A stretch of 64,000 nucleotides of DNA from an uncultured Pelagibacteraceae bacterium (GCA_902634765.1 CACPLH010000005.1:10015-74014); one strand, 5' to 3'. Shown: positions 99 through 46,643, counted from the first letter of the stretch. Numbers and translations are program-made. The notes: a model not told the origin generated them from the letters alone.

Positions 99-2135
99 CT
101 AATCATTAGATACAAGATTTATCAGAAAAGCATTATCTAATGCACTCTCTTCAAGTGTATTCAATCTTCCACTTTTACCTGCATGTCCACCAACTAAGTT
201 CATCTTCATTAATATTGGATTATCTGAAGTAGAGTTTTCTCTAAGTTTTGGAACGTATTTTGCAGGTTCATAGTACTGAACTTGTGAGTCATAAAGGCTT
301 GATGTCACAAGAACAGCAGGATAATTAGACGGCTTAATGTTGTCATATGGAGAATAACTTTTGATATAATCATATTCTTCTTTGTTGGCTGGATTTCCCC
401 ATTCTTTGTACTCAAACGTTGTTAAAGGTATCGACTCATCAGACATGGTGGTTACAACATCTACAAATGGAACGGCAGATATAATTCCCGTATACAACTC
501 TGGCTCCATGTTAATCACTGCCCCCATCAAAAGACCTCCTGCACTACCACCCATTGCAAACACATTTTTACTATCACCATAACCGTTCTCAATTAACGAT
601 TTAGTTGCATCAATAAAGTCATAAAAGGTATTTTTCTTATTTAAAATTTTACCATCATCATACCACTGACGCCCCATTTCAGATCCACCTCTAATATTTG
701 CAACAGCAAAAATGAAACCCCTGTTCAATAAGGGAAGAATTGAAGTTCTGAATGCAGCATCAATAATGATGCCATAAGATCCATAACCATAAACAAGAAT
801 TGGGGCTTTTTTTAAATCAATACCTTTCTTGTAAACTAGTGATATGGGTACTTTAGTATTATCTCTTGCGCTTATTTTCTGTCTCTCCACTTTGTATAAG
901 CTTTCATCATAATTACTAACCATTTGTTGCCATACCAGATCACTTTCACCAGATTGAATATCTTCTTTAAAAATCGAACTAGGTTTTTTTGGACTTGAAT
1001 AACCATAGTAAAATTCTGTATCAAGATAATTGTTATTGGTTGCTAAATAACATGAAAAAGCAGGTTCACTGAATTCTATGTATTTTCTTTCAAGTGTGTT
1101 TCTATTTATTTTGAGAATCTTAGGCAGTCCATCTTCTCTTATTTCCAAATATAAATATTGAGGAAAGGCAATAAAGTCTTCAATTAAAATCTTACTATCA
1201 TGCTCAATAACTGTTTCCCAACTATCGTAATTACTAATTTGGTCGAGATTGAATTTTAAAATTTCAAAGTTTTTTCTATCATTTGCGTTACTGCTGGCGT
1301 AAAAACATTCTGGAGTATCTTCAATGGAATAAAGATGCTTTTCGGATCTATCTAAAACGCAGAAAGGCTTACTATTTTCATCGTCTAAATCAAGCAACCA
1401 TGTTTCGGATGCTTCAGTTTTACTACTATAAATGTTGAGATATTTCTTTGTTCTAGACTCAAATATATGTAAATGAAATTCTGTATCCTTTTCTTCGTAT
1501 ATTAGAATATCTTCTTTTGTGTCAGTACCCACTTTATGTTTAAACACTTTATTTTCAATCAAGGTAACAGGGTCTTTAAGTGCATAATAAATGGTATCAT
1601 TATTTTGGTTCCATACCACAGTTCCTGAAGATCTTTGTATACTCTCGTCAATTATCTGACCTGTTTCTAAATTCTTGATCCTTATATTGTATTCTCTACG
1701 TCCGGATAAATCTTCTGCATAAGCTATATACTGATTATTTGGTGAAGGAATAATAGAGGCCACATTAAAATAATCTAAATCTTTTGCTAATTTATTTACA
1801 TCAAGGACTAATTCTTTTTTTCCATCAATTTCACGATAATATGTTTTGTATTGTTGATCTGAACTAATCTCTGAAAAATATAAATAATTACCAAACTTAA
1901 CCTTCATAGAAACTTCATGAGGTGGAATGAAGCTTACTAATTCATCATAAATTTCTTTTCGACAATCGTTCTTACTTTCAAACCAGGTCTCTAAATATTT
2001 ATTTTCAGATTCTAAATACGAAATGACCTCTGGATTTTTACGAGTATCATCTCTAAGCCAGTAATAATTATCAACACGTTTATCTCCATGAGCAGTATGA
2101 ATTTTTTTAATTTTTTTAGGCTGAGGAGGCTTCAT
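99..2135 (-). CDS. ptrB: Oligopeptidase B (S9A prolyl oligopeptidase family)
   Basis: 678 aa; N-terminal HGDKRVDNYYWLRD; catalytic GGSAGG, YDSQVQYYEPAK and C-terminal GGH motifs. Confidence 0.92.
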   Translation of the reverse strand: MKPPQPKKIKKIHTAHGDKRVDNYYWLRDDTRKNPEVISYLESENKYLETWFESKNDCRKEIYDELVSFIPPHEVSMKVKFGNYLYFSEISSDQQYKTYYREIDGKKELVLDVNKLAKDLDYFNVASIIPSPNNQYIAYAEDLSGRREYNIRIKNLETGQIIDESIQRSSGTVVWNQNNDTIYYALKDPVTLIENKVFKHKVGTDTKEDILIYEEKDTEFHLHIFESRTKKYLNIYSSKTEASETWLLDLDDENSKPFCVLDRSEKHLYSIEDTPECFYASSNANDRKNFEILKFNLDQISNYDSWETVIEHDSKILIEDFIAFPQYLYLEIREDGLPKILKINRNTLERKYIEFSEPAFSCYLATNNNYLDTEFYYGYSSPKKPSSIFKEDIQSGESDLVWQQMVSNYDESLYKVERQKISARDNTKVPISLVYKKGIDLKKAPILVYGYGSYGIIIDAAFRTSILPLLNRGFIFAVANIRGGSEMGRQWYDDGKILNKKNTFYDFIDATKSLIENGYGDSKNVFAMGGSAGGLLMGAVINMEPELYTGIISAVPFVDVVTTMSDESIPLTTFEYKEWGNPANKEEYDYIKSYSPYDNIKPSNYPAVLVTSSLYDSQVQYYEPAKYVPKLRENSTSDNPILMKMNLVGGHAGKSGRLNTLEESALDNAFLINLVSND

Positions 2136-2171
2136 ATAATTGATTGTTATTAATTTTAGAATAAATTTCTA

Positions 2172-3365
2172 TTAGAAATATTTAGCAATTTTAATCTTGA
2201 AATTTGAGTCATCTTTAAATGCATAGTTATAATCGCTACTATCAATACTACCACTAATAATAGCTTCTATAAAAATTTTGAAATCATTCTTTAATCGCTG
2301 CTCATACTCAATAAAAAACTGATTCGAATTACCATCTAAATCAACAATTGATCCAGCTAGTAAGGTAGTTGAGTTAATATCATTTTTAGTCCACCGTATT
2401 CCAATAGAACCCTCATTATTGAAGGGTTGATCATTCCTATCATCAAACAAATATTCAATGATTAATCCTAAATCTTGGGATGAATTATTGAATCCATAAT
2501 ACGTGTACTCAAAACCACCTGCTGTACTAAAATATTGTTCTGACATTAATTCAGCAAATATTACCTCAAGTTTATATAACCATGCATCTTTGGTTGCTTG
2601 AATATCAATACCAGTTTGAGATAATAAAGGGTAATATTGATCTAATTTTAAACTCGTTTGATTAATACTTAATTTTGGATTTCTTGAATTTCCATAGAAA
2701 TGATAAAATCCGATATCAAAATCATCAATCATTGTTGAATATCTTATTGCAAAATCTGTATGTTTTTCTGCTTTTGAAGACTCATATGAAATTGAATTTT
2801 CATCAATTTCTAAGTTTAACCTTGGTCGACCATTAGCACCTGGGAATATTTGTTCCCTGAAATAAGGCAATATATAAAAATCAACATCACCAAAATCTCT
2901 ATAAAGAGATACAGCTATCATAGGCTGACCTAGCTTTTTTGTTCCTGACAAGTTCTCAGCTAAATTTGATTGGTTAATAATATCAACCAAATGAAAACTT
3001 TCATTAACTCCCCAGAAGACAACCTCATTTCCTAGTTTAATTGTTGCGTCATCAAAGTAATACTCATACTTGAGTTTTTGGAAATCGAAGTATGTTCTAT
3101 TATGATCTTCTCGATCATATCTACCTAAAGTACTTATTGATATTTTAGCATTATCATCTTGAATAAATGTTGTGAAATTTGCTGTTCCTAATATGGATGG
3201 TTTTTCTCGTGATTGATTATGTCTACCATCACCATTTATGAATAGAGAGTATTCAGGTTGAATACTTCCATATAGATTATATTCAAAAGATAAAGCTCTA
3301 CTTGAAGATAGCAATGCCGCAATAATGAATGTATAAATTAAATAAAGCTGTATTAATCTAATCAC
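2172..3365 (-). CDS. Putative outer-membrane beta-barrel protein associated with the MMPL/LolA-like pair
   Basis: Signal peptide, alternating aromatic/polar strands, C-terminal Phe (KIKIAKYF), VFWGVNESFHLVDIINQ segment; co-oriented with the two upstream genes. Confidence 0.65.
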   Translation of the reverse strand: MIRLIQLYLIYTFIIAALLSSSRALSFEYNLYGSIQPEYSLFINGDGRHNQSREKPSILGTANFTTFIQDDNAKISISTLGRYDREDHNRTYFDFQKLKYEYYFDDATIKLGNEVVFWGVNESFHLVDIINQSNLAENLSGTKKLGQPMIAVSLYRDFGDVDFYILPYFREQIFPGANGRPRLNLEIDENSISYESSKAEKHTDFAIRYSTMIDDFDIGFYHFYGNSRNPKLSINQTSLKLDQYYPLLSQTGIDIQATKDAWLYKLEVIFAELMSEQYFSTAGGFEYTYYGFNNSSQDLGLIIEYLFDDRNDQPFNNEGSIGIRWTKNDINSTTLLAGSIVDLDGNSNQFFIEYEQRLKNDFKIFIEAIISGSIDSSDYNYAFKDDSNFKIKIAKYF

Positions 3366-6463: not shown

Positions 6464-6568
6464 GAGTTGGAAAATACTATTTAATCATCATAAAGGAAGT
6501 AAAATTTCTATATACAATAAAGATATTTAATCAGTTTTTTATTAATAATCTAAAAATTCTTAATAGTC

Positions 6569-6642
6569 TGGTGCCCCTAGCTGGTTACGCTCCAGCGGCT
6601 GATCATTACCAATGACCTGCTTTACTATTAAGCGATAGGGGC
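6569..6642 (-). tRNA. tRNA-Thr(GGU), 74 nt, encoded CCA, non-canonical D- and T-loops
   Basis: Reverse complement GCCCCTA TC GCTT AATAGTA AAGC A GGTCA TTGGTAA TGATC AGCC GCTGG AGCGTAA CCAGC TAGGGGC A CCA; all four stems pair; anticodon GGT; Thr identity pairs G1-C72 and C2-G71. Confidence 0.9.
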
Positions 6643-6652
6643 ATTAATTTAA

Positions 6653-6681
6653 ACTATAGATGGCACATCATATGATAGCAA
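6653..6681 (-). promoter_or_regulatory. Sigma70-type promoter for tRNA-Thr
   Basis: Minus strand TTGCTA (6681-6676), 17-bp spacer, TATAGT (6658-6653), 10 nt upstream of the tRNA. Confidence 0.65.
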
Positions 6682-6693
6682 AAAAATTGAAAT

Positions 6694-6737
6694 TGTTAAA
6701 AATTACACTACATGATGTTAAAAATTACACTACATGA
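6694..6737 (+). repeat. Perfect 22-bp tandem duplication
   Basis: TGTTAAAAATTACACTACATGA twice (6694-6715 and 6716-6737), just upstream of the cytochrome c start. Confidence 0.95.
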
Positions 6738-6746
6738 AAAGTAATC

Positions 6747-7187
6747 ATGAAAGCCGCAATAATTACCTTAGCTATATTAGTTATTACCTTCTTTATATAT
6801 CAGTATAACTCAAATAATAGAATTGAAGAAGAAGTTGCAAAAGTACAACAATCAATTCAACCTAAAACTATAGCGCTTTATCAAGATTATTGTGCATCAT
6901 GTCATGGTGTAAAATTAAAAGGTCAAGAAGGTTGGCAGAATAAACTCGATGAAGATGGCCATCGACTTGCTCCTCCTCTTAATGGAACAGGTCATACATG
7001 GCATCATTCTCCTGATTATTTATTTCGTGTTATTAAATATGGGTTTCAAAGCTATGATCCTTATTATGAGGGTAAAATGGTTGGGAATAGCAACCTTAGT
7101 GATACTGAGGTTTGGGATTTAATAGCTTATTTAAAGCAGGAATGGCCTACTCAAATACAAGATGTTTATAATAGTAGATACGAGTAA
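6747..7187 (+). CDS. Monoheme cytochrome c, N-terminally anchored
   Basis: CASCH heme motif; APPLNGTGHTWHH segment; Met axial-ligand candidate in GKMVG. Confidence 0.88.
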   Translation: MKAAIITLAILVITFFIYQYNSNNRIEEEVAKVQQSIQPKTIALYQDYCASCHGVKLKGQEGWQNKLDEDGHRLAPPLNGTGHTWHHSPDYLFRVIKYGFQSYDPYYEGKMVGNSNLSDTEVWDLIAYLKQEWPTQIQDVYNSRYE

Positions 7188-7214
7188 CCTTATAATGTAT
7201 TTAAGTTAATCTAA

Positions 7215-7231
7215 TTATCCACATATCCACA
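7215..7231 (+). promoter_or_regulatory. Tandem DnaA-box matches
   Basis: TTATCCACA (7215-7223, perfect) followed by ATATCCACA (7223-7231, 8/9). Confidence 0.5.
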
Positions 7232-7296
7232 ACTTAACAAATATGAAAATTTTTTTTCTTCTTTAATAATTTTTTTTAATCAATTAGAATTGTTTT

Positions 7297-7409
7297 ATCG
7301 GCGCGTAGAAGTCGAAAGCCCTTCGGGGAGTTTGGTCAGAAGCGTGGCGTGTTTCGGGGTTGTAGAGAGAGCTTTTCGGAGTGATTTGTACAACCCCGTT
7401 TCTTTTTTT
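7297..7409 (+). ncRNA. Candidate structured small RNA of unassigned family
   Basis: 56 of 101 bases G+C (7298-7398) in very AT-rich intergenic DNA; hairpins TCGGC/GTCGA, CCC-TTCG-GGG and CGGGGTTGTA/TACAACCCCG with apical TTCG; 3' U-tract; TAGAAT -10 at 7285-7290. Confidence 0.65.
7355..7409 (+). terminator. Intrinsic terminator-like long hairpin
   Basis: 10-bp stem 7355-7364/7389-7398 followed by TTTCTTTTTTT. Confidence 0.7.
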
Positions 7410-7415
7410 ATTCTC

Positions 7416-8441
7416 TCATTTATCAAAATCTAATTTAAGTGGTGATAATAAAATATTCCCTCTTATGTCTCCGATTAAAACATGAGAGCAATCAGGTAAC
7501 GAAGATATAGCTGAAATCTCTAAACCGGTAGGATTTTGTATCAATATGGGATTTTTATACTCATCTACCTCTGAAAAAAAAACCTTACCATCTCGAAAAC
7601 CTGCAAAAAAAGCATTTTCTCCTGACAAAGGCTCTATGAATGTTACATTTTGGTCACCGCCATTAGTAAGGCAAATTGGTTTACGTTCTTGTGGCCCATT
7701 TTTTCCATCAAAAGGCCAACATATCGACTCTTTTGCACCTGAAGTTATAAGAAAAGGCGTGTCTCCAACCCAAGCAAAACTTTTTATTTTTTCTGAATAG
7801 CCTGACATTGCCATATTAATTTTGTCACGAATACGCCATATATGAAGCTCATTTTCCTGCATCGCCGTGATAAGGTATTTTCCGTCTGGGCTAAAACTCA
7901 CCTTACCATGAGAACCTTTCCATACAAATCTCGAGGGCTTCCATTTTTTATTGCCTAATCGCCATACTGTTGCCCCTCCATAACAAGATATTGCTATTCG
8001 TTTTCCATTTTGATCGATTGTAATTCCACCAACAGTACTATCATGTTCTAGTAATTTTGGATTCTTATCACCATTCGACCAAACATAAGCAGTTCGACCA
8101 GAAGAACAAACAAGATTGTCCTCGAATACAGCTAAACAATCTACCCAACGAGTACCAAAATTAGTTATTTCATTTATTTTACCATCAATAGAAATCTGCA
8201 AAAAACGTCCATCATCTCCACCTGTATAAATATACTTACCATTTGATGACATACATAACACAACACCATTATGTGCTTTTATCACATGCGGCTCCTCACC
8301 ATAACGAAAGAAACGTACTGTTCCATCTCCAAAGCTAACAGCAATTGCATCATGAAGTGGAACTGCTCCTATAACAGGAGCACCAACATCAAACTTTATA
8401 CCTTTTCGCTCAAATTCTGTTTGATTAAATTCAGCACTCAT
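7416..8441 (-). CDS. WD40-repeat beta-propeller protein (COG0523-associated)
   Basis: Repeated H..V...A/S and W-x patterns ([29 protein letters not shown]); 4-bp overlap with the COG0523 gene. Confidence 0.82.
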
Positions 8442-9409
8442 GCTGATTTGCAGCCTTCAAATCCCTCCTGAAGATTCATACTCTCAAGATTTCTTCCAAT
8501 GAATACTACCCTTGAATTACGATCTTTATTTTTGGGCCAAGGTCCCATAGGTGATGCATCCATAAGCATGTGCACACCCTGAAACACATAACGTTCTTCT
8601 TCACCTTTAAAATCAAGAATTCCTTTAGATCTTAAAATATCTTGACCTTTTGTTTGTAAAAGCTCTCCAAACCATGACTCAAATTTTTGCATATCAAGAG
8701 GAATTTCAGAAACAAATGAAACACTGGTAACATCATCGTCATGGTCATGGTCATGATCGGACTCTAAGAAATCAGGCTCTACTTCAAGAACACGATCAAG
8801 ACTAAAGGCATTAAGACCAAGAATCTCTTCAAGAGGAGCTTCGCAACGATTGGTTTTAATTATTCTTGTATAAGGATTGATTTTTCGAATTCGCTCTTCA
8901 ACACCTACAAGTTTACTTTCATCTACTAGATCAATTTTATTTAACAATACAACATCTGCAAATGCAATTTGTTCTTCTGCTTCGTGATGGCTCCCCAACT
9001 GTGAACTCAAATGAACAGCATCAGCAACAGTTACAATTGCATCAAGTTTTGTACGATCAGAAACATCTTGATCGACAAAGAATGTTTGTGCAACTGGAGC
9101 TGGATCAGCGAGTCCAGTAGTTTCAACAATGATTGCATCAAGTTGATCTGCTCGTTTCATAAGACCGCCAAGAATACGTATTAGGTCACCCCGTACAGTA
9201 CAACAGATGCATCCGTTATTCATCTCAAACACTTCTTCGTCAGCGTCAACAACAAGGTCATTATCAATTCCCTGTTCTCCAAATTCATTTACAATAACCG
9301 CGTAACGACGACCATGCTGTTCTGTTAGAATTCGATTTAAAAGTGTTGTTTTACCAGCTCCCAAAAAGCCTGTTAATACCGTGACTGGAACTTGAGAAAT
9401 ATCATTCAT
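8438..9409 (-). CDS. COG0523/CobW-family G3E GTPase, zinc metallochaperone
   Basis: [18 protein letters not shown] and NKID motifs; DHDHDHDD linker; CobW C-terminal domain; upstream Zur box. Confidence 0.93.
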
Positions 9410-41550: not shown

Positions 41551-43908
41551 TTATGCTTTTACTCTGCTTTTTGTGGGGTCATAAAATGGAAACTCAATTA
41601 TCTTAGCTTTCAATCTTCTTTGATGACCATCAAGCTTTCCCACTTCAACTTCAGTACCTATTTCTGATGAATGAACGTCTATTCGACAAAATGCAATATT
41701 CTTATCGAGAGTTGGAGAAATCATACCACTCGTAATAACGCCAATCTGTCCTTTTCCGATGTGAACACAATCTCCATGACCGCATCTTTCATTGCCTTCG
41801 ATTTCAAGACCCACTAATTTTCGATGAGGATTCTCTTTTCTTCTGATCAAAGCATCACGACCGATAAAATTTGCGTCTTTTGATTTAAGTGGAACCGTAA
41901 ATGAAATACCTGCCTCAAAAGGATCTGTCTCGTCGCTAAATTCGTTTCCTCCTAAGATCAATCCTGCTTCAATTCTAAGCATATCCAAAGCATCAAAGCC
42001 CATTGGGACTATATCATATTCTTGTCCAGCTTCCCAAATTGCATCCCACACTGCAGGAGCGTCTTTTGGATGACAATAAACTTCATATCCAAGCTCCCCT
42101 GTATAACCAGTTCGAGACAACATTACCGGTATGCCCTGATGATCGTTCAATCTGCTGATATTAAAATGAAACCATTTCAAATCCTCAATTCCAGGACTTG
42201 CAGGTGTCGTCCACATTATTTTTGATAAAACTTTACGACTGTTTGGACCCTGAACCGAAAGGTTGTGTAATTGATCCGTAGAAGATTTAACTGAAGCTCT
42301 CAAATTTAATTTTAAAGCTAATTCACGTAACCATTCTCCAGAATAATCACTTCCACCAATCCATCGAAAGTTGGTGTCTCCCAGTCTAAAAAGTGTTCCA
42401 TCATCGATCATTGTTCCATTTTCATAACACATTGCTGTGTATACAACTTGGCCTACTGATAATTTCTTCACATTTCTCGTTAATGCAGTATTCATTAGCT
42501 CTTCTGCATCGGGACCAATAACTTCAAACTTTTTTAGTGATGATAGGTCCATCATAACAACATTATTTCGACAGGCGGTGTACTCCGCTACGGTTCCATG
42601 ATTGTCATATTTTCGAGGAATCCAAACACCAGCGAATTCAATGTAATCTTTTGTCAACTTTGAGGTTCTGTCGTGAAAACCTGTTTGAGTTGTTAAATCT
42701 ATATCTGCTTCCACACTCTTTCGATATCCTATTGCTTTAGAGAAAAAATTCTCCTTAGAGTAAATTCTAACGCAAATATCTGTCGGGTTCCAGTCATTAG
42801 CTGCATCAATGTCACAAGGGCAAGCGGACGACAAAGAGACTAAGTTCTTTTGTGCTTGAAAGAGAACATAATTTCCTGGTACTGACCACGGTACATCAAA
42901 AAAGAAAACATTTGTTGCATCAAGACCAGTATTAAAAAATAGATTAATAGCCTGCCAAGCTCTTCTCTTTTCTACACCGTAGGCATCCAATGCCTTGTTA
43001 AAATTATCTGAACAATTTGCATGACCAAAATAACCTACATCTTCATAGTATTTTGAGCTGCATGCATTTCCAAAAGTATCATGCCTGCCACAAGTATCTT
43101 GAATGACTTCAACTAACGCATCTTGATCCTGATCAAAGTATTTTGAAAATAGTCCTGGTACAGCATAATTCATTCCAATAATACTTCTTGTGACCATTGG
43201 ATCTATCGACAGCTCTTTTCCTTTTTCTAATTTTAAAGAATCAAAAACTTGAAAATCAGAACACTGTCTGCCATATAAATCAATCACTTGAATAAAATCA
43301 CCTGCCTCAACTTCATATGATATTGCTGTACTGTTATCGACAATAAACTCTTCTTTAATCTCTGCTAAAGGAGGGGGTAAATAATAATTAGCTTTGTTAT
43401 TAGTTTTATTTAGCCTTTTAATTTTAACCTCTAAATCAGTTGGTGGATTTTGACTATCAACTGACATATCAGTACCGGGGGCAGCAATAATAATGAATCC
43501 ATCATTTTCACAGGTAAACTCTTCAACTGTTCCAGCAATTGTCTCTTGATCAAACAGATTAATTGAATGGGCTTTATGAAAATCAATATTTTTCTTCTTT
43601 AATTTTGATAATAAATAATCTTTTTCTGATTTATTCGATAATACTTCTTTAGCAAAAATAGCATCACCATTACTTTTCGATCCAATTGATTCTGGTGAAG
43701 ACTTTCCCGCACTATCAAAAACAACAACTTCAGCTTTTTGACTTCCTTCAACATTTTTAATTGAAATATGGTCACCCTTAAAGAACTCAATTCCAGTCAG
43801 CCCCATGGCTTTTGCTACATAGCGCTCAACTCCATCTGGAAGACCTATGACTCCAGCATCATAAGGGTTTGTTTTTCTTACGTTAAAATTTTCTAAATTA
43901 ATATCCAT
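41551..43908 (-). CDS. tdm: TMAO demethylase (DUF1989 + GcvT-like)
   Basis: 785 aa; GRQCSDF, DTCGRHDTFGNAC, GHANCSDNF, ACPCDID; C-terminal aminomethyltransferase SRTGYTGELGYE. Confidence 0.9.
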   Translation of the reverse strand: MDINLENFNVRKTNPYDAGVIGLPDGVERYVAKAMGLTGIEFFKGDHISIKNVEGSQKAEVVVFDSAGKSSPESIGSKSNGDAIFAKEVLSNKSEKDYLLSKLKKKNIDFHKAHSINLFDQETIAGTVEEFTCENDGFIIIAAPGTDMSVDSQNPPTDLEVKIKRLNKTNNKANYYLPPPLAEIKEEFIVDNSTAISYEVEAGDFIQVIDLYGRQCSDFQVFDSLKLEKGKELSIDPMVTRSIIGMNYAVPGLFSKYFDQDQDALVEVIQDTCGRHDTFGNACSSKYYEDVGYFGHANCSDNFNKALDAYGVEKRRAWQAINLFFNTGLDATNVFFFDVPWSVPGNYVLFQAQKNLVSLSSACPCDIDAANDWNPTDICVRIYSKENFFSKAIGYRKSVEADIDLTTQTGFHDRTSKLTKDYIEFAGVWIPRKYDNHGTVAEYTACRNNVVMMDLSSLKKFEVIGPDAEELMNTALTRNVKKLSVGQVVYTAMCYENGTMIDDGTLFRLGDTNFRWIGGSDYSGEWLRELALKLNLRASVKSSTDQLHNLSVQGPNSRKVLSKIMWTTPASPGIEDLKWFHFNISRLNDHQGIPVMLSRTGYTGELGYEVYCHPKDAPAVWDAIWEAGQEYDIVPMGFDALDMLRIEAGLILGGNEFSDETDPFEAGISFTVPLKSKDANFIGRDALIRRKENPHRKLVGLEIEGNERCGHGDCVHIGKGQIGVITSGMISPTLDKNIAFCRIDVHSSEIGTEVEVGKLDGHQRRLKAKIIEFPFYDPTKSRVKA

Positions 43909-44000
43909 TTATATCGTCAAGCATACATCAAATTTGAATTGACAACTATCGCGAAGTAAGAAAAATGCTAATTATTAGATTTAAAATTTAGGATTAAATA

Positions 44001-45344
44001 ATGTCGATACCTGATAAAGCTGATTATGTAATTATCGGTGCTGGAATTCACGGACTAAGCACGGCCTACCATTTGGCTGCAAAATTAAAAGCACAAGGGA
44101 AAGGCGATGGAAGTAAAATCTTAATTATTGAAAAAGACTCAATTGCTGCAGGAGCAACTGGGGTTGCATGTGGCGTGGTAAGAAATAATTATTTTCAACC
44201 TGCAATGAGAGAGTTAATGGCGCACTCAGTAGAAGTTTGGGAAACAGACCCTAAAGCATATCATTATCACAGTGTTGGTTATATGCAGATCAGTCCAGAG
44301 TGTATGGAAGAAGATGTTACTTCCATATATGAACAACAAAAAAATATTGGATACGACTCAGAGTTCATTCAAGGAAAAGAAGATTCTGAAAAATATATGA
44401 AATCAATGTTTGGTGATTGGCAAGCAAAAGGAATTACGAGCGTGCTTCATGAAAAAAGAGGAGGTTATGCTAATAATACATCTGCTATGTATGGTTTAGC
44501 TGATAAGGCTGAACATGAAGGTGTAAGACTTTTAACAGGGGTTACAGTTAAAGGTTTTCAATATGGTTCAAACTCTGATGCCGTAACTGCTGTGGACACT
44601 GATAAAGGATCAATAAAGTGCGATCAAGTTATAATCGGTGCAGGTCCTTGGGCACAATCATTTTGGAATATGCTAGAGCTACCAAAAGAAGTTAGTATTA
44701 AAAGCAATGGAACAGTTCATGAAAATATTCCCATGTGGCAATACTGGTTTTTAGTTGAAGGAGTTCTCAACGTTGATCCAAATTTCTTAAAAACTGAAGA
44801 TGGGAACATGCCTCCTGTCATTCATGTTGATACTGACGCACCTCTTTATTCTGATGTCGATAAATCTCTAATCACAGATAAATTATGGGGAATTTATTAT
44901 AAGCCTGATTTTCATTTTGGAGGAATTCAAGGTGGGGCTTCTCCTTATAAAGTAGGTAAGCCTGGTGGAGCTGGAATAGAAGTAGATCCTTATGGACCAT
45001 CATCTAAAAACTTTGTGATTGATGATAACTTTGCCCATATGTGGACTTCTGCACTAGCGTTCTGCCATAAAAGATTTGAGGGAAAATCGCACTTGTTTAA
45101 GAAAGGTGCTACTGGTGGACTAGGATGTTTTACTCCTGATTCTTTTCCTGTATTTGATCAATTTAGAGAAAATGTTTACATGATTGCTGACTCAAATCAT
45201 GGATATAAAATGTTAGGCGTAGGAAAGCTTGTTGCCGATGAAATCCTTGGTGAAAAAAGTAGCTTATTAGAACCATTCAGATACTCAAGATATGAAGAAG
45301 GCAAGCTACACCCTACATCAAACAGTCCCTTTCCTTGGAGTTGA
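44001..45344 (+). CDS. FAD-dependent oxidoreductase (DAO/monomeric sarcosine oxidase-like), tdm-linked
   Basis: GAGIHGLSTAYHL, GATGVACGVVRNNY, DSNHGYKM and terminal SNSPFPWS. Confidence 0.8.
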   Translation: MSIPDKADYVIIGAGIHGLSTAYHLAAKLKAQGKGDGSKILIIEKDSIAAGATGVACGVVRNNYFQPAMRELMAHSVEVWETDPKAYHYHSVGYMQISPECMEEDVTSIYEQQKNIGYDSEFIQGKEDSEKYMKSMFGDWQAKGITSVLHEKRGGYANNTSAMYGLADKAEHEGVRLLTGVTVKGFQYGSNSDAVTAVDTDKGSIKCDQVIIGAGPWAQSFWNMLELPKEVSIKSNGTVHENIPMWQYWFLVEGVLNVDPNFLKTEDGNMPPVIHVDTDAPLYSDVDKSLITDKLWGIYYKPDFHFGGIQGGASPYKVGKPGGAGIEVDPYGPSSKNFVIDDNFAHMWTSALAFCHKRFEGKSHLFKKGATGGLGCFTPDSFPVFDQFRENVYMIADSNHGYKMLGVGKLVADEILGEKSSLLEPFRYSRYEEGKLHPTSNSPFPWS

Positions 45345-45386
45345 GCAAAATCGTTCTATATAATTAAACTTTAAAGGTTATTTGTT

Positions 45387-46643
45387 TTGAAAAAATACTC
45401 AGTATTCAGTCTGGTTAAAAATGCTCTCAATCATCATAAAGATTGGGATGTTGCTTGGAGAGATCCTGAGCCAAAAAAAGAATATGAAGCAGTTATCATT
45501 GGTGGCGGTGGTCATGGATTAGCGACTGCTTATTATTTAGCAAAATATTACGATCTAAAAAATATCGCTATCCTAGAAAAAGGTTGGATTGGCGGGGGAA
45601 ACGTTGGAAGAAATACCACGATTTTAAGATCTAATTATATGCATGATGCCAATAACTTGTTCTATGAACAAGGAATGCAAATGTGGAAAGACCTGAGTCA
45701 GGAATTAAATTATAATGTAATGTATTCACCCAGAGGAATACTAAATCTTGCTCACTCAGATGCTCAATTAAACACTTACGCTAGAAGAGGAAATTCAATG
45801 AGGTTGAATGGGATTGATGCAGTACTTCTTGGAAGAGAAGAGGTAAGAAAGATGATTCCATTTGCAGATTTTACTGAGAATGCTCGATTCCCGATTTTTG
45901 GAGGGCTTCTTCAGCCAATTGGTGGAACGGCAAGACATGATGCAGTTGCATGGGGATACGCAAGGGCAGCTGATGACATGGGAGTAGACATAATACAACA
46001 TTGTGAAGTAAACGGTTTTGATATTGAGAATGGCAAAGTCATTGGAGTACAAACATCAAAAGGTAATATCAAAACAAATAAAGTTGGGCTTTGTGTTGCA
46101 GGAAGTACTTCCATACTAGCTGAAAAATTAAATATGACTCTTCCAATTGAGGCTCATGTTTTACAAGCTTGCGTTTCAGAGCCGGTGAAACCTCTGCTTG
46201 ATGGAGTTGTAACATTTGGCGCTGGTCATTTTTATTGCAGTCAATCTGATAAAGGTGAAATGGTTATGGGTGGAGATTTAGATGGATATAATAGTTATGC
46301 CCAAAGAGGAAATTTGCCTACGATCCAACATGTTCTAACTGAAGGTGTCGCACTTTTTCCGAATTTAAGTCGATTAAAGATATTACGAACATGGGGTGGG
46401 ATTATGGATATGTCCATGGACGGTTCTCCTATAATTGATAAAACTCACATTGATGGCGTCTACTTAAATTGTGGTTGGTGCTATGGTGGCTTTAAAGCAA
46501 CACCAGTTTCAGGGCTGACTTTTGCTCATACCATTGCCTGTAATGAACCTCATGAATTAAATGTTCCATTTAAATTAGATCGATTCCATACAGGACACTT
46601 AATTGACGAAAAAGGTCTCGGAACAAAAACCTGGATTAGTTAA
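45387..46643 (+). CDS. soxB: Heterotetrameric sarcosine oxidase/N-methylglutamate dehydrogenase beta subunit
   Basis: GGGGHGLATAYYLA, GGGNVGRNTTILRSNY, ARHDAVAWGY, GWCYGGFKATP; TTG start. Confidence 0.88.
   Translation: MKKYSVFSLVKNALNHHKDWDVAWRDPEPKKEYEAVIIGGGGHGLATAYYLAKYYDLKNIAILEKGWIGGGNVGRNTTILRSNYMHDANNLFYEQGMQMWKDLSQELNYNVMYSPRGILNLAHSDAQLNTYARRGNSMRLNGIDAVLLGREEVRKMIPFADFTENARFPIFGGLLQPIGGTARHDAVAWGYARAADDMGVDIIQHCEVNGFDIENGKVIGVQTSKGNIKTNKVGLCVAGSTSILAEKLNMTLPIEAHVLQACVSEPVKPLLDGVVTFGAGHFYCSQSDKGEMVMGGDLDGYNSYAQRGNLPTIQHVLTEGVALFPNLSRLKILRTWGGIMDMSMDGSPIIDKTHIDGVYLNCGWCYGGFKATPVSGLTFAHTIACNEPHELNVPFKLDRFHTGHLIDEKGLGTKTWIS

Follow-up and report, generated by a model that had tools for sequence, protein, structure and literature searches.

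Bacteria of the SAR11 clade rank among the ocean's most abundant cells; their genomes are tiny and harbor very few regulators and many riboswitches, and to our knowledge almost no small RNAs (sRNAs) have been described in them. Here, we present a computational analysis of a candidate sRNA gene on the plus strand of a 64,000-nt stretch of DNA (the window) from an uncultured Pelagibacteraceae bacterium (GCA_902634765.1 CACPLH010000005.1:10015-74014), which belongs to contig C5 of the 1.2-Mb assembly G000. The gene is located between a cytochrome c gene on its 5′ side (6747-7187, plus strand; PF13442/PF00034) and a convergent WD40-repeat gene on its 3′ side (7416-8441, minus strand). GC content is 0.55 in 7300-7399 vs 0.17 in 7200-7299 and 0.27 in 7400-7499, with about 30% in the surrounding DNA, so that GC counts and gene calls confirm the 55% GC island between convergent genes in AT-rich intergenic DNA that had been noted in a first-pass annotation of the sequence. 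That annotation had placed the element at 7285-7409; a conserved unit is indeed found there, but it is longer and begins at 7215 with two DnaA boxes. It comprises the following parts:

7215-7223, plus strand: DnaA box 1, TTATCCACA, 9/9 to the consensus and part of a tandem present in 57/57 distinct upstream rows
7223-7231, plus strand: DnaA box 2, ATATCCACA, 8/9 to the consensus, overlapping box 1 by one base (8-nt period)
7232-7262, plus strand: AT-rich spacer including a T-run, from the boxes to the promoter; its length is conserved and its sequence drifts
7263-7268, plus strand: -35-like hexamer TTAATA from the promoter scan, with a TTTAAA-like block at this place in relatives
7285-7290, plus strand: -10 hexamer TAGAAT from the promoter scan and the upstream alignment
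7297-7409, plus strand: predicted RNA of about 113 nt, from the fold, a covariance-model match and one RNA-library contig; both ends are putative
7299-7349, plus strand: 5′ domain, a long irregular hairpin in the minimum-energy fold
C7299-G7349 and G7300-C7348 (P1), then 7302-7306 with 7342-7346 (P1b), plus strand: lower stems of this hairpin in the minimum-energy fold, followed by P2
7313-7334, plus strand: near-invariant P2 core CGAAAGCCCUUCGGGGAGUUUG, a hairpin that has a UUCG loop and contains a 2x2 AG/AG internal loop
7355-7398, plus strand: predicted terminator hairpin of 44 nt, with a 10-bp GC-rich base, internal loops and an inner UUCG-capped stem
7399-7409, plus strand: U-tract UUUCUUUUUUU, from sequence and alignment

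The plus strand folds with -42.3 kcal/mol (z -3.37), a value reached by 1 of 200 shuffled sequences, vs -21.6 kcal/mol (z -0.85; 37 of 200 shuffles as good) for the minus strand. Together with invariant G-U pairs that exist on the plus strand alone in the alignment, these z-scores bear out the strand preference proposed earlier. Two hairpins of the first description were recovered: the C-UUCG-G hairpin, which is the tip of the 5′ hairpin, and the long UUCG-capped hairpin, which continues with TTTCTTTTTTT. A third one at the 5′ end (TCGGC/GTCGA) can be drawn, but it is not part of the minimum-energy structure and is in competition with the conserved stem at the base of the second hairpin. The supposed G-rich linker pairs through its 3′ end with the 5′ CGG, in the fold as well as in relatives, which results in one hairpin at 7299-7349. 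Based on the fold, the U-tract and the covariation described below, 7355-7409 is a predicted intrinsic terminator, with UUU before the stem and a U-rich tail of 7-11 nt after it in the alignment; a simple terminator scan gave 0 sites in 7100-7500 because the stem is broken by internal loops.

A covariance model built in the present analysis (R1; 113 positions, 24 pairs) matches the window at 7296-7409 with 93.9 bits (E 1.4e-20). When applied to 150 genomes of the order, R1 gave one strong match per genome (90-128 bits, E 1e-19 to 1e-29) in 46 of them: in G000 plus 4/5 other genomes of the same genus (g1), in 41/46 of a sister genus (g4), and in 0/5, 0/2 and 0/91 genomes of the genera g2 and g3 and the family f2, respectively. 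The genera g1 and g4 belong to one family, to which f2 is the sister family, and most g1 and g4 genomes lacking a match are 55-79% complete. BLAST against 60 relatives gave the same picture, with E <=0.0011 in G000, 4/5 other g1 genomes and 23/23 g4 genomes and matches at chance level in g2, g3 and f2. Outside the family, one genome each of 150 other alphaproteobacterial families yielded 0 R1 matches, G000 being the sole match of the 151 genomes. A specific pattern search added 18 marine metagenome contigs that carry the RNA. The named records with the RNA are single-cell genomes of the type “uncultured Pelagibacteraceae bacterium”, with at least 4 such contigs. Within G000, a short BLAST search detected no second copy, the matches being confined to the U-tract and to chance matches of 11-15 nt.

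Comparison with Rfam gave no match for this RNA. At the gathering threshold, Rfam 15 recognized in the whole window a tRNA at 6572-6642 alone; in 7150-7500 with E up to 10, it returned one meaningless match to a mammalian lncRNA model (15.4 bits, threshold 70 bits), and in nine homologous loci with E up to 5 it returned nothing on the RNA. The first-pass annotation had seen no signature of SRP, tmRNA, RNase P, 6S, SAM-II/V, glycine, TPP or hammerhead RNAs, and the Rfam scans of the RNA locus and the nine homologous loci agree with this. No description of the RNA was found in the literature on small and structured RNAs of SAR11/Pelagibacter and on DnaA-linked sRNAs; a Red Sea mdRNA-seq paper, in the part of it that was available, maps SAR11 reads to strain HTCC7211.

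The 65 locus rows represent 58 distinct loci and 7 duplicate rows and contain 47 distinct RNA sequences, from which two alignments were made, A1 with 28 sequences and A2 with 48 distinct rows, the latter including one weak reverse-strand match that adds slight noise to the counts. Four sequence types were distinguished: type A in the window's genus, type A′ in G011 and four metagenome contigs, and types B and C in the sister genus. Fully invariant in A1 are the 5′ AUCGG, most of the CGAAAGCCYUUCGGGGAGUUUG hairpin, the UUU before the terminator and five basal terminator pairs; these blocks change in few of the 47 distinct sequences. The possibility that conservation is confined to the terminal hairpin, raised with the first description, is answered in the negative, as the 5′ hairpin is the most conserved part. 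In A2, 90.9% of the pair cells are standard pairs vs 85.6% in shuffles and 28-58% with the partners slid, and 11 pairs change on both sides vs 5.7 expected (0 of 500 shuffles reach 11). Nearly the whole covariation signal comes from the terminator stem, in which 9 of 17 pairs change on both sides yet stay paired. The seven pairs of the P2 core are 99.4% paired, without real covariation. P1 has a pairing probability of 0.83-0.99 in 25/25 distinct sequences of types A, A′ and B, and one type B sequence shows a compensatory A-U to U-A change in this stem.

Upstream of the RNA, 70-170 nt of all loci were aligned, anchored on the RNA start (57 distinct rows). The promoter scan of the window identified TTAATA-16-TAGAAT with 9/12 matches, and the TAGAAT that had been reported close upstream was thus located at 7285-7290, 5 nt before T7296. 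In the majority of the 57 rows, a TAnnAT motif precedes this first aligned base by 5 nt, with several rows departing from it; a TTTAAA-like -35 is conserved across the rows, and type C mostly shows the extended -10 TGcTAATAT. Transcription would start at A7297 of the near-invariant AUCGG, 7 nt past the -10, and the RNA would end in the U-tract.

Further upstream, abutting DnaA boxes in tandem were found in 57/57 distinct rows, with the last CCACA starting at -67 to -70 from T7296. Its sequence is TTATCCACATATCCACA for types A and A′ (7215-7231 in the window), TTTTCCACTTATCCACA for type B and TTATCCACTTATCCACA for type C, and every row inspected by eye has at least one 9/9 box. G000 contains 10 perfect TTATCCACA boxes, and the tandem in the window is the sole one; two look-alikes with 1 mismatch in this assembly were discarded, both being within long open reading frames (ORFs). 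In the order (150 genomes), exact matches to the tandem pattern are confined to g1 and g4, with one in each genome, and are 65-66 nt away from the RNA match in the six genomes checked (G000, G001, G003, G004, G005, G032), and the 91 genomes of f2 have six scattered matches with 1 mismatch. Over residues 375-467, the G000 DnaA protein can be aligned with 1j1v, the complex of E. coli domain IV with DNA (E 1.5e-28), and it shares the stretch GGRDHTTVIHA unchanged with the B. subtilis chain, so it is a fair inference that this DnaA recognizes the standard box. In most type C loci, e.g. L043 (about 1060-1420), the distance between the upstream MFS gene and the DnaA boxes is about 440 nt vs about 110-135 nt in A′ and B, and this stretch 5′ of the boxes is itself well conserved (CATGAAAGAATATGGAATTC...).

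On these data, the locus very probably contains a real, conserved and structured non-coding RNA gene outside Rfam. The earlier proposal of an independently transcribed, structure-constrained and uncatalogued RNA is supported by single copy, conserved -10, terminator covariation, the lack of a conserved ORF and the missing Rfam match. The element is a new family within a known kind, the bacterial sRNAs. On balance, and with some reserve, we favor the reading as a free-standing, clade-specific SAR11 sRNA gene under DnaA control. A free-standing sRNA is the best reading because the RNA has its own promoter and terminator, stays intact despite changing neighbors, is single-copy, occurs in two genera and shows no convincing antiterminator.

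The proposed mechanism treats 7215-7409 as a single conserved transcription unit. The two DnaA boxes, at about -65 to -80, would be the likely control input to a sigma-70-type promoter, from which an RNA of about 113 nt starting with AUCGG would be transcribed and ended by the strong intrinsic terminator. The level of this RNA would be set by the occupancy of the boxes by DnaA, and the RNA may act without Hfq, ProQ and CsrA, via its invariant 5′ end and hairpin, by protein binding or short base pairing. Transcripts of a downstream LysE exporter gene in the sister genus would probably also arise mainly by read-through of the terminator. We infer the effect of DnaA on transcription, the action in trans and the existence of targets.

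Several results weigh against this reading. Binding of DnaA at the boxes is deduced from their consensus alone, and no cluster of DnaA boxes marking an origin was seen in G000 or in 250 kb of the sister-genus genome G008, nor any single box near dnaA in G000, where dnaA is on another contig than the RNA locus. The sole evidence of expression is a 124-nt contig of depth 5 from the seawater metatranscriptome X1, one of the RNA runs that share words with 6500-8500, in which an 86-nt insert with adapters on both sides corresponds to 7311-7396 with 3 differences (the flanking genes have depth 2-3); the contig fits a transcript, gives neither strand nor ends, and may stem from DNA carry-over. The RNA runs X3, X4 and X5 gave contigs over flanking genes, tRNA or the T-rich tract 7246-7280 and none over the RNA, which, with contigs, has no bearing on an absence of the RNA. 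Hfq (PF17209), ProQ and CsrA were each found in 0/5 SAR11 genomes (G000, G003, G006, G008, G036), four of which are at least 96% complete, which makes classical trans-acting sRNA action less likely. A comparison of the 5′ 62 nt with 1,151 crude translation-start regions by RNAduplex returned unrealistic full-length duplexes only, and a short BLAST search of the genome for targets gave nothing usable. The 5′ domain is nearly without covariation, since it hardly varies, and the seven pairs at its tip are thereby neither supported nor contradicted. Its fold is also not uniform across the family: in 20/21 sequences of type C, the commonest type, the probability of P1 is 0.35 or lower, and in these a small local hairpin (UCGGC-loop-GCCGA) takes the place of P1, which leaves a 17-nt single-stranded 5′ end.

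The last point against a free-standing sRNA is the gene order in the sister genus. A LysE gene (PF01810, E 3.8e-21) follows the RNA on the same strand after 25-35 nt in 50/51 type B/C rows, the remaining row having 26 nt of downstream DNA only; this gap leaves no room for another promoter, and the layout is that of a cis-acting leader. Consequently, the first-pass statement that the element is not a 5′ leader holds in the window and fails for the family as a whole. According to this alternative, which we consider possible but rather unlikely, the RNA is a riboswitch or attenuator, and its 5′ domain would respond to a metabolite or protein and control terminator read-through into LysE; in the window's genus, the read-through would run antisense into the convergent WD40/DUF3299/CobW genes. 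A leader also agrees with the missing Hfq, ProQ and CsrA and with the near-invariant, aptamer-like loops and bulges of the 5′ domain, and in the sister family a LysE-family gene is likewise preceded by a conserved hairpin with poly-U, the “rhtB element” that is described in the available text of PMC2704228. In types A and A′, however, the RNA is fully conserved although 0/14 rows, the window included, have a co-directional downstream gene, and the LysE orthologues of g1 (69% identity) and g2 (64%) are located elsewhere, behind a plain AT-rich upstream region without the RNA. Inspection of folds and alignment, with no dedicated search, gave no convincing antiterminator (alternatives of 3-4 bp), and the closing stem lies clear of the terminator. 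Moreover, type C, the most tightly linked to LysE, is without the P1/P1b stems that would close an aptamer, and a distribution over two genera is narrow for a riboswitch class. The sRNA and leader readings are not exclusive: a constitutive sRNA with a leaky terminator that feeds LysE would fit all data.

Two side observations concern the region after the terminator in the sister genus. Type B loci, e.g. L006 (minus strand), have a second conserved 9-bp hairpin, UUUGUGUCU...GGAUACAAA, in the roughly 50 nt between U-tract and LysE start, and its loop repeats the invariant 5′ motif AUCGG of the RNA. In type C loci, GCCCCC stands directly after the U-tract and repeats the terminator 3′ arm.

It would also be conceivable that the functional element is the DNA itself, as a DnaA titration or reactivation site (datA/DARS-like) or as an origin relic, next to which the hairpins are a neighboring terminator. 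No canonical DnaA-box pair in the assembly is as strong as the tandem, which is followed by an AT-rich tract and is as strictly conserved as the RNA. Two boxes are few for a titration site, though, and datA and DARS of E. coli have more boxes in mixed orientation; the fixed spacing to -35 and -10 and about 110 nt of strand-specific conserved structure imply a transcript, and we judge this explanation improbable. A replication origin at the locus was ruled out in two genomes by GC skew. In contig C5 of G000 the sign of the skew does not change across the locus, nor does it in C1 of G008: in the latter, a complete sister-genus contig with the locus at 608.9 kb, it climbs steadily from about 460 to 630 kb; without a flip at the locus, the locus is therefore not an origin. 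Elsewhere in the window, the cumulative skew of C5 has its minimum (negative to positive) at about 42000-46000 (C5 about 53 kb), as is typical of a replication origin or of a place where the gene strand switches; near it there are weak DnaA-box variants only, TTATCGACA twice and TTATCAACA once.

As no other terminator-like hairpin was seen between the stop codon at 7187 and 7355, upstream transcripts would end at the terminator of the RNA, which may suggest a mere elaborate intrinsic terminator or 3′ UTR (untranslated region) of the upstream gene, i.e. cytochrome c or, in the sister genus, an MFS transporter. This is very improbable, as the module is retained at loci with different upstream genes, the stretch from the upstream stop to the RNA includes a conserved promoter and conserved DnaA boxes, and the most conserved part is the 5′ hairpin and not the terminal one. 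Least credible of all is a diverged housekeeping RNA or a small-protein gene: size and single copy resemble 4.5S RNA, 6S RNA (RF00013) is not detected by Rfam anywhere in 5/5 genomes and open frames of 43-47 codons span the region, but there is no Rfam match at the locus with E up to 10, SRP RNA (RF00169) is present elsewhere in 5/5 genomes (in G000 at C17:14820-14918, 56.5 bits), two separate hairpins with unpaired ends differ from 6S RNA, a rod of about 180 nt with paired ends and a central bubble, and neither a reading frame nor a start codon is conserved across types, between which the frame shifts via a 2-nt indel.

The neighborhood of the RNA varies within the window's genus. Upstream, three loci have a cytochrome c gene, one has an aldehyde-dehydrogenase-like ORF and one a gene for another enzyme, and the downstream gene is always convergent, encoding DUF3299 or, in the window, WD40. 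Across these loci the RNA is 85-96% identical despite the differing neighbors. The upstream gene of types A′, B and C encodes an MFS transporter. The genes convergent on the RNA in g1 (window 7416-9409, minus strand; loci L002-L005) form a cluster of WD40 and a CobW/COG0523-type GTPase, which is joined by the DUF3299 protein gene in the other four g1 genomes; in the window the DUF3299 gene is absent, and the end of the WD40 gene is 7 nt past the U-tract. The tRNA gene at 6572-6642 (minus strand; RF00005, 50.9 bits) lies between an MMPL-family gene and the cytochrome c gene and is also present in the homologous locus L003.

A more far-reaching proposal, which we put forward tentatively and do not expect to hold in full, is a DnaA-sensing RNA switchboard in a cell with hardly any transcription factors. 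Here, the ATP/ADP-DnaA load would set the amount of a chaperone-independent RNA that relays replication status and reaches an amino-acid exporter by read-through; alternatively, the element would be a new riboswitch class, whose 5′ domain may serve the LysE exporter and, in the window's genus, antisense control of the convergent operon. If the switchboard exists, it would be the first sRNA known under direct DnaA control and the first SAR11 regulatory sRNA with a defined input, and the DnaA link, if true, would show how a streamlined cell couples gene expression to replication. The maintenance of a GC-rich, single-copy RNA against AT pressure in two genera points to a likely important role, and the covariance model R1 is ready for finding the RNA in marine metatranscriptomes.

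Among known systems, terminator-type riboswitches share with the present RNA the promoter, the conserved structured domain, the terminator and, in types B and C, the gene directly downstream. They differ in that here inspection turned up no antiterminator, the closing stem is missing from one type and Rfam gives no match. Terminator-type riboswitches that drive antisense or orphan transcripts exist in Listeria (B12-AspocR, SreA). Generic sRNA genes are similar in having their own -10 and -35, about 110 nt in length, stem-loops, a terminator between UUU and U-tail, a narrow range and a single copy. Unlike in those, Hfq, ProQ and CsrA were not found in the five genomes searched, and types A and B have no obvious single-stranded seed. 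Both apical loops of the present RNA are of the UUCG type, which is a structural rather than a pairing loop.

The rhtB element of Candidatus Pelagibacter ubique is, in the available text of Meyer et al. 2009 (PMC2704228), a conserved hairpin, often with poly-U, before a LysE/RhtB-type exporter gene, for which the authors left a regulatory or terminator role undecided. Identity with the present RNA is ruled out by the different sequence and architecture, the rhtB element being a single bulged AT-rich hairpin with the consensus GAUAGUCCU...UAGCCAUC...AGGACUAUC in the supplementary alignment (PMC2704228), and it adjoins a LysE paralogue only 24-30% identical to the LysE next to the present RNA. 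The diagnostic strings GGGGAGUUUG and UUCGGGGAG have 0 occurrences in 8 alignment files of the supplement (PMC2704228). In the sister-family genome G040, locus L069 (about 2095-2175, minus strand) shows the rhtB element GATAGTCCTT...AAGGACTATC with a T-run right before the start codon of the LysE paralogue; different SAR11 families thus have two unrelated elements of hairpin and U-tract ahead of LysE-type exporter genes.

Of the described cases, CcnA of Caulobacter crescentus comes closest, as it is likewise an alphaproteobacterial ncRNA (non-coding RNA) gene tied to DnaA boxes (PMC8959179). As far as the available text describes it, CcnA is 182 nt long, has its gene inside the origin and acts on mRNAs, without a dedicated chaperone being described there, and its CtrA-box promoter carries the binding site of a master cell-cycle regulator (PMC8959179). 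The present RNA differs from CcnA, as described there, in its length of about 113 nt, its location off the origin, its two consensus boxes upstream of the promoter and its unrelated sequence. New here is that two consensus DnaA boxes are conserved at a constant distance from the promoter; this pair provides a testable input signal.

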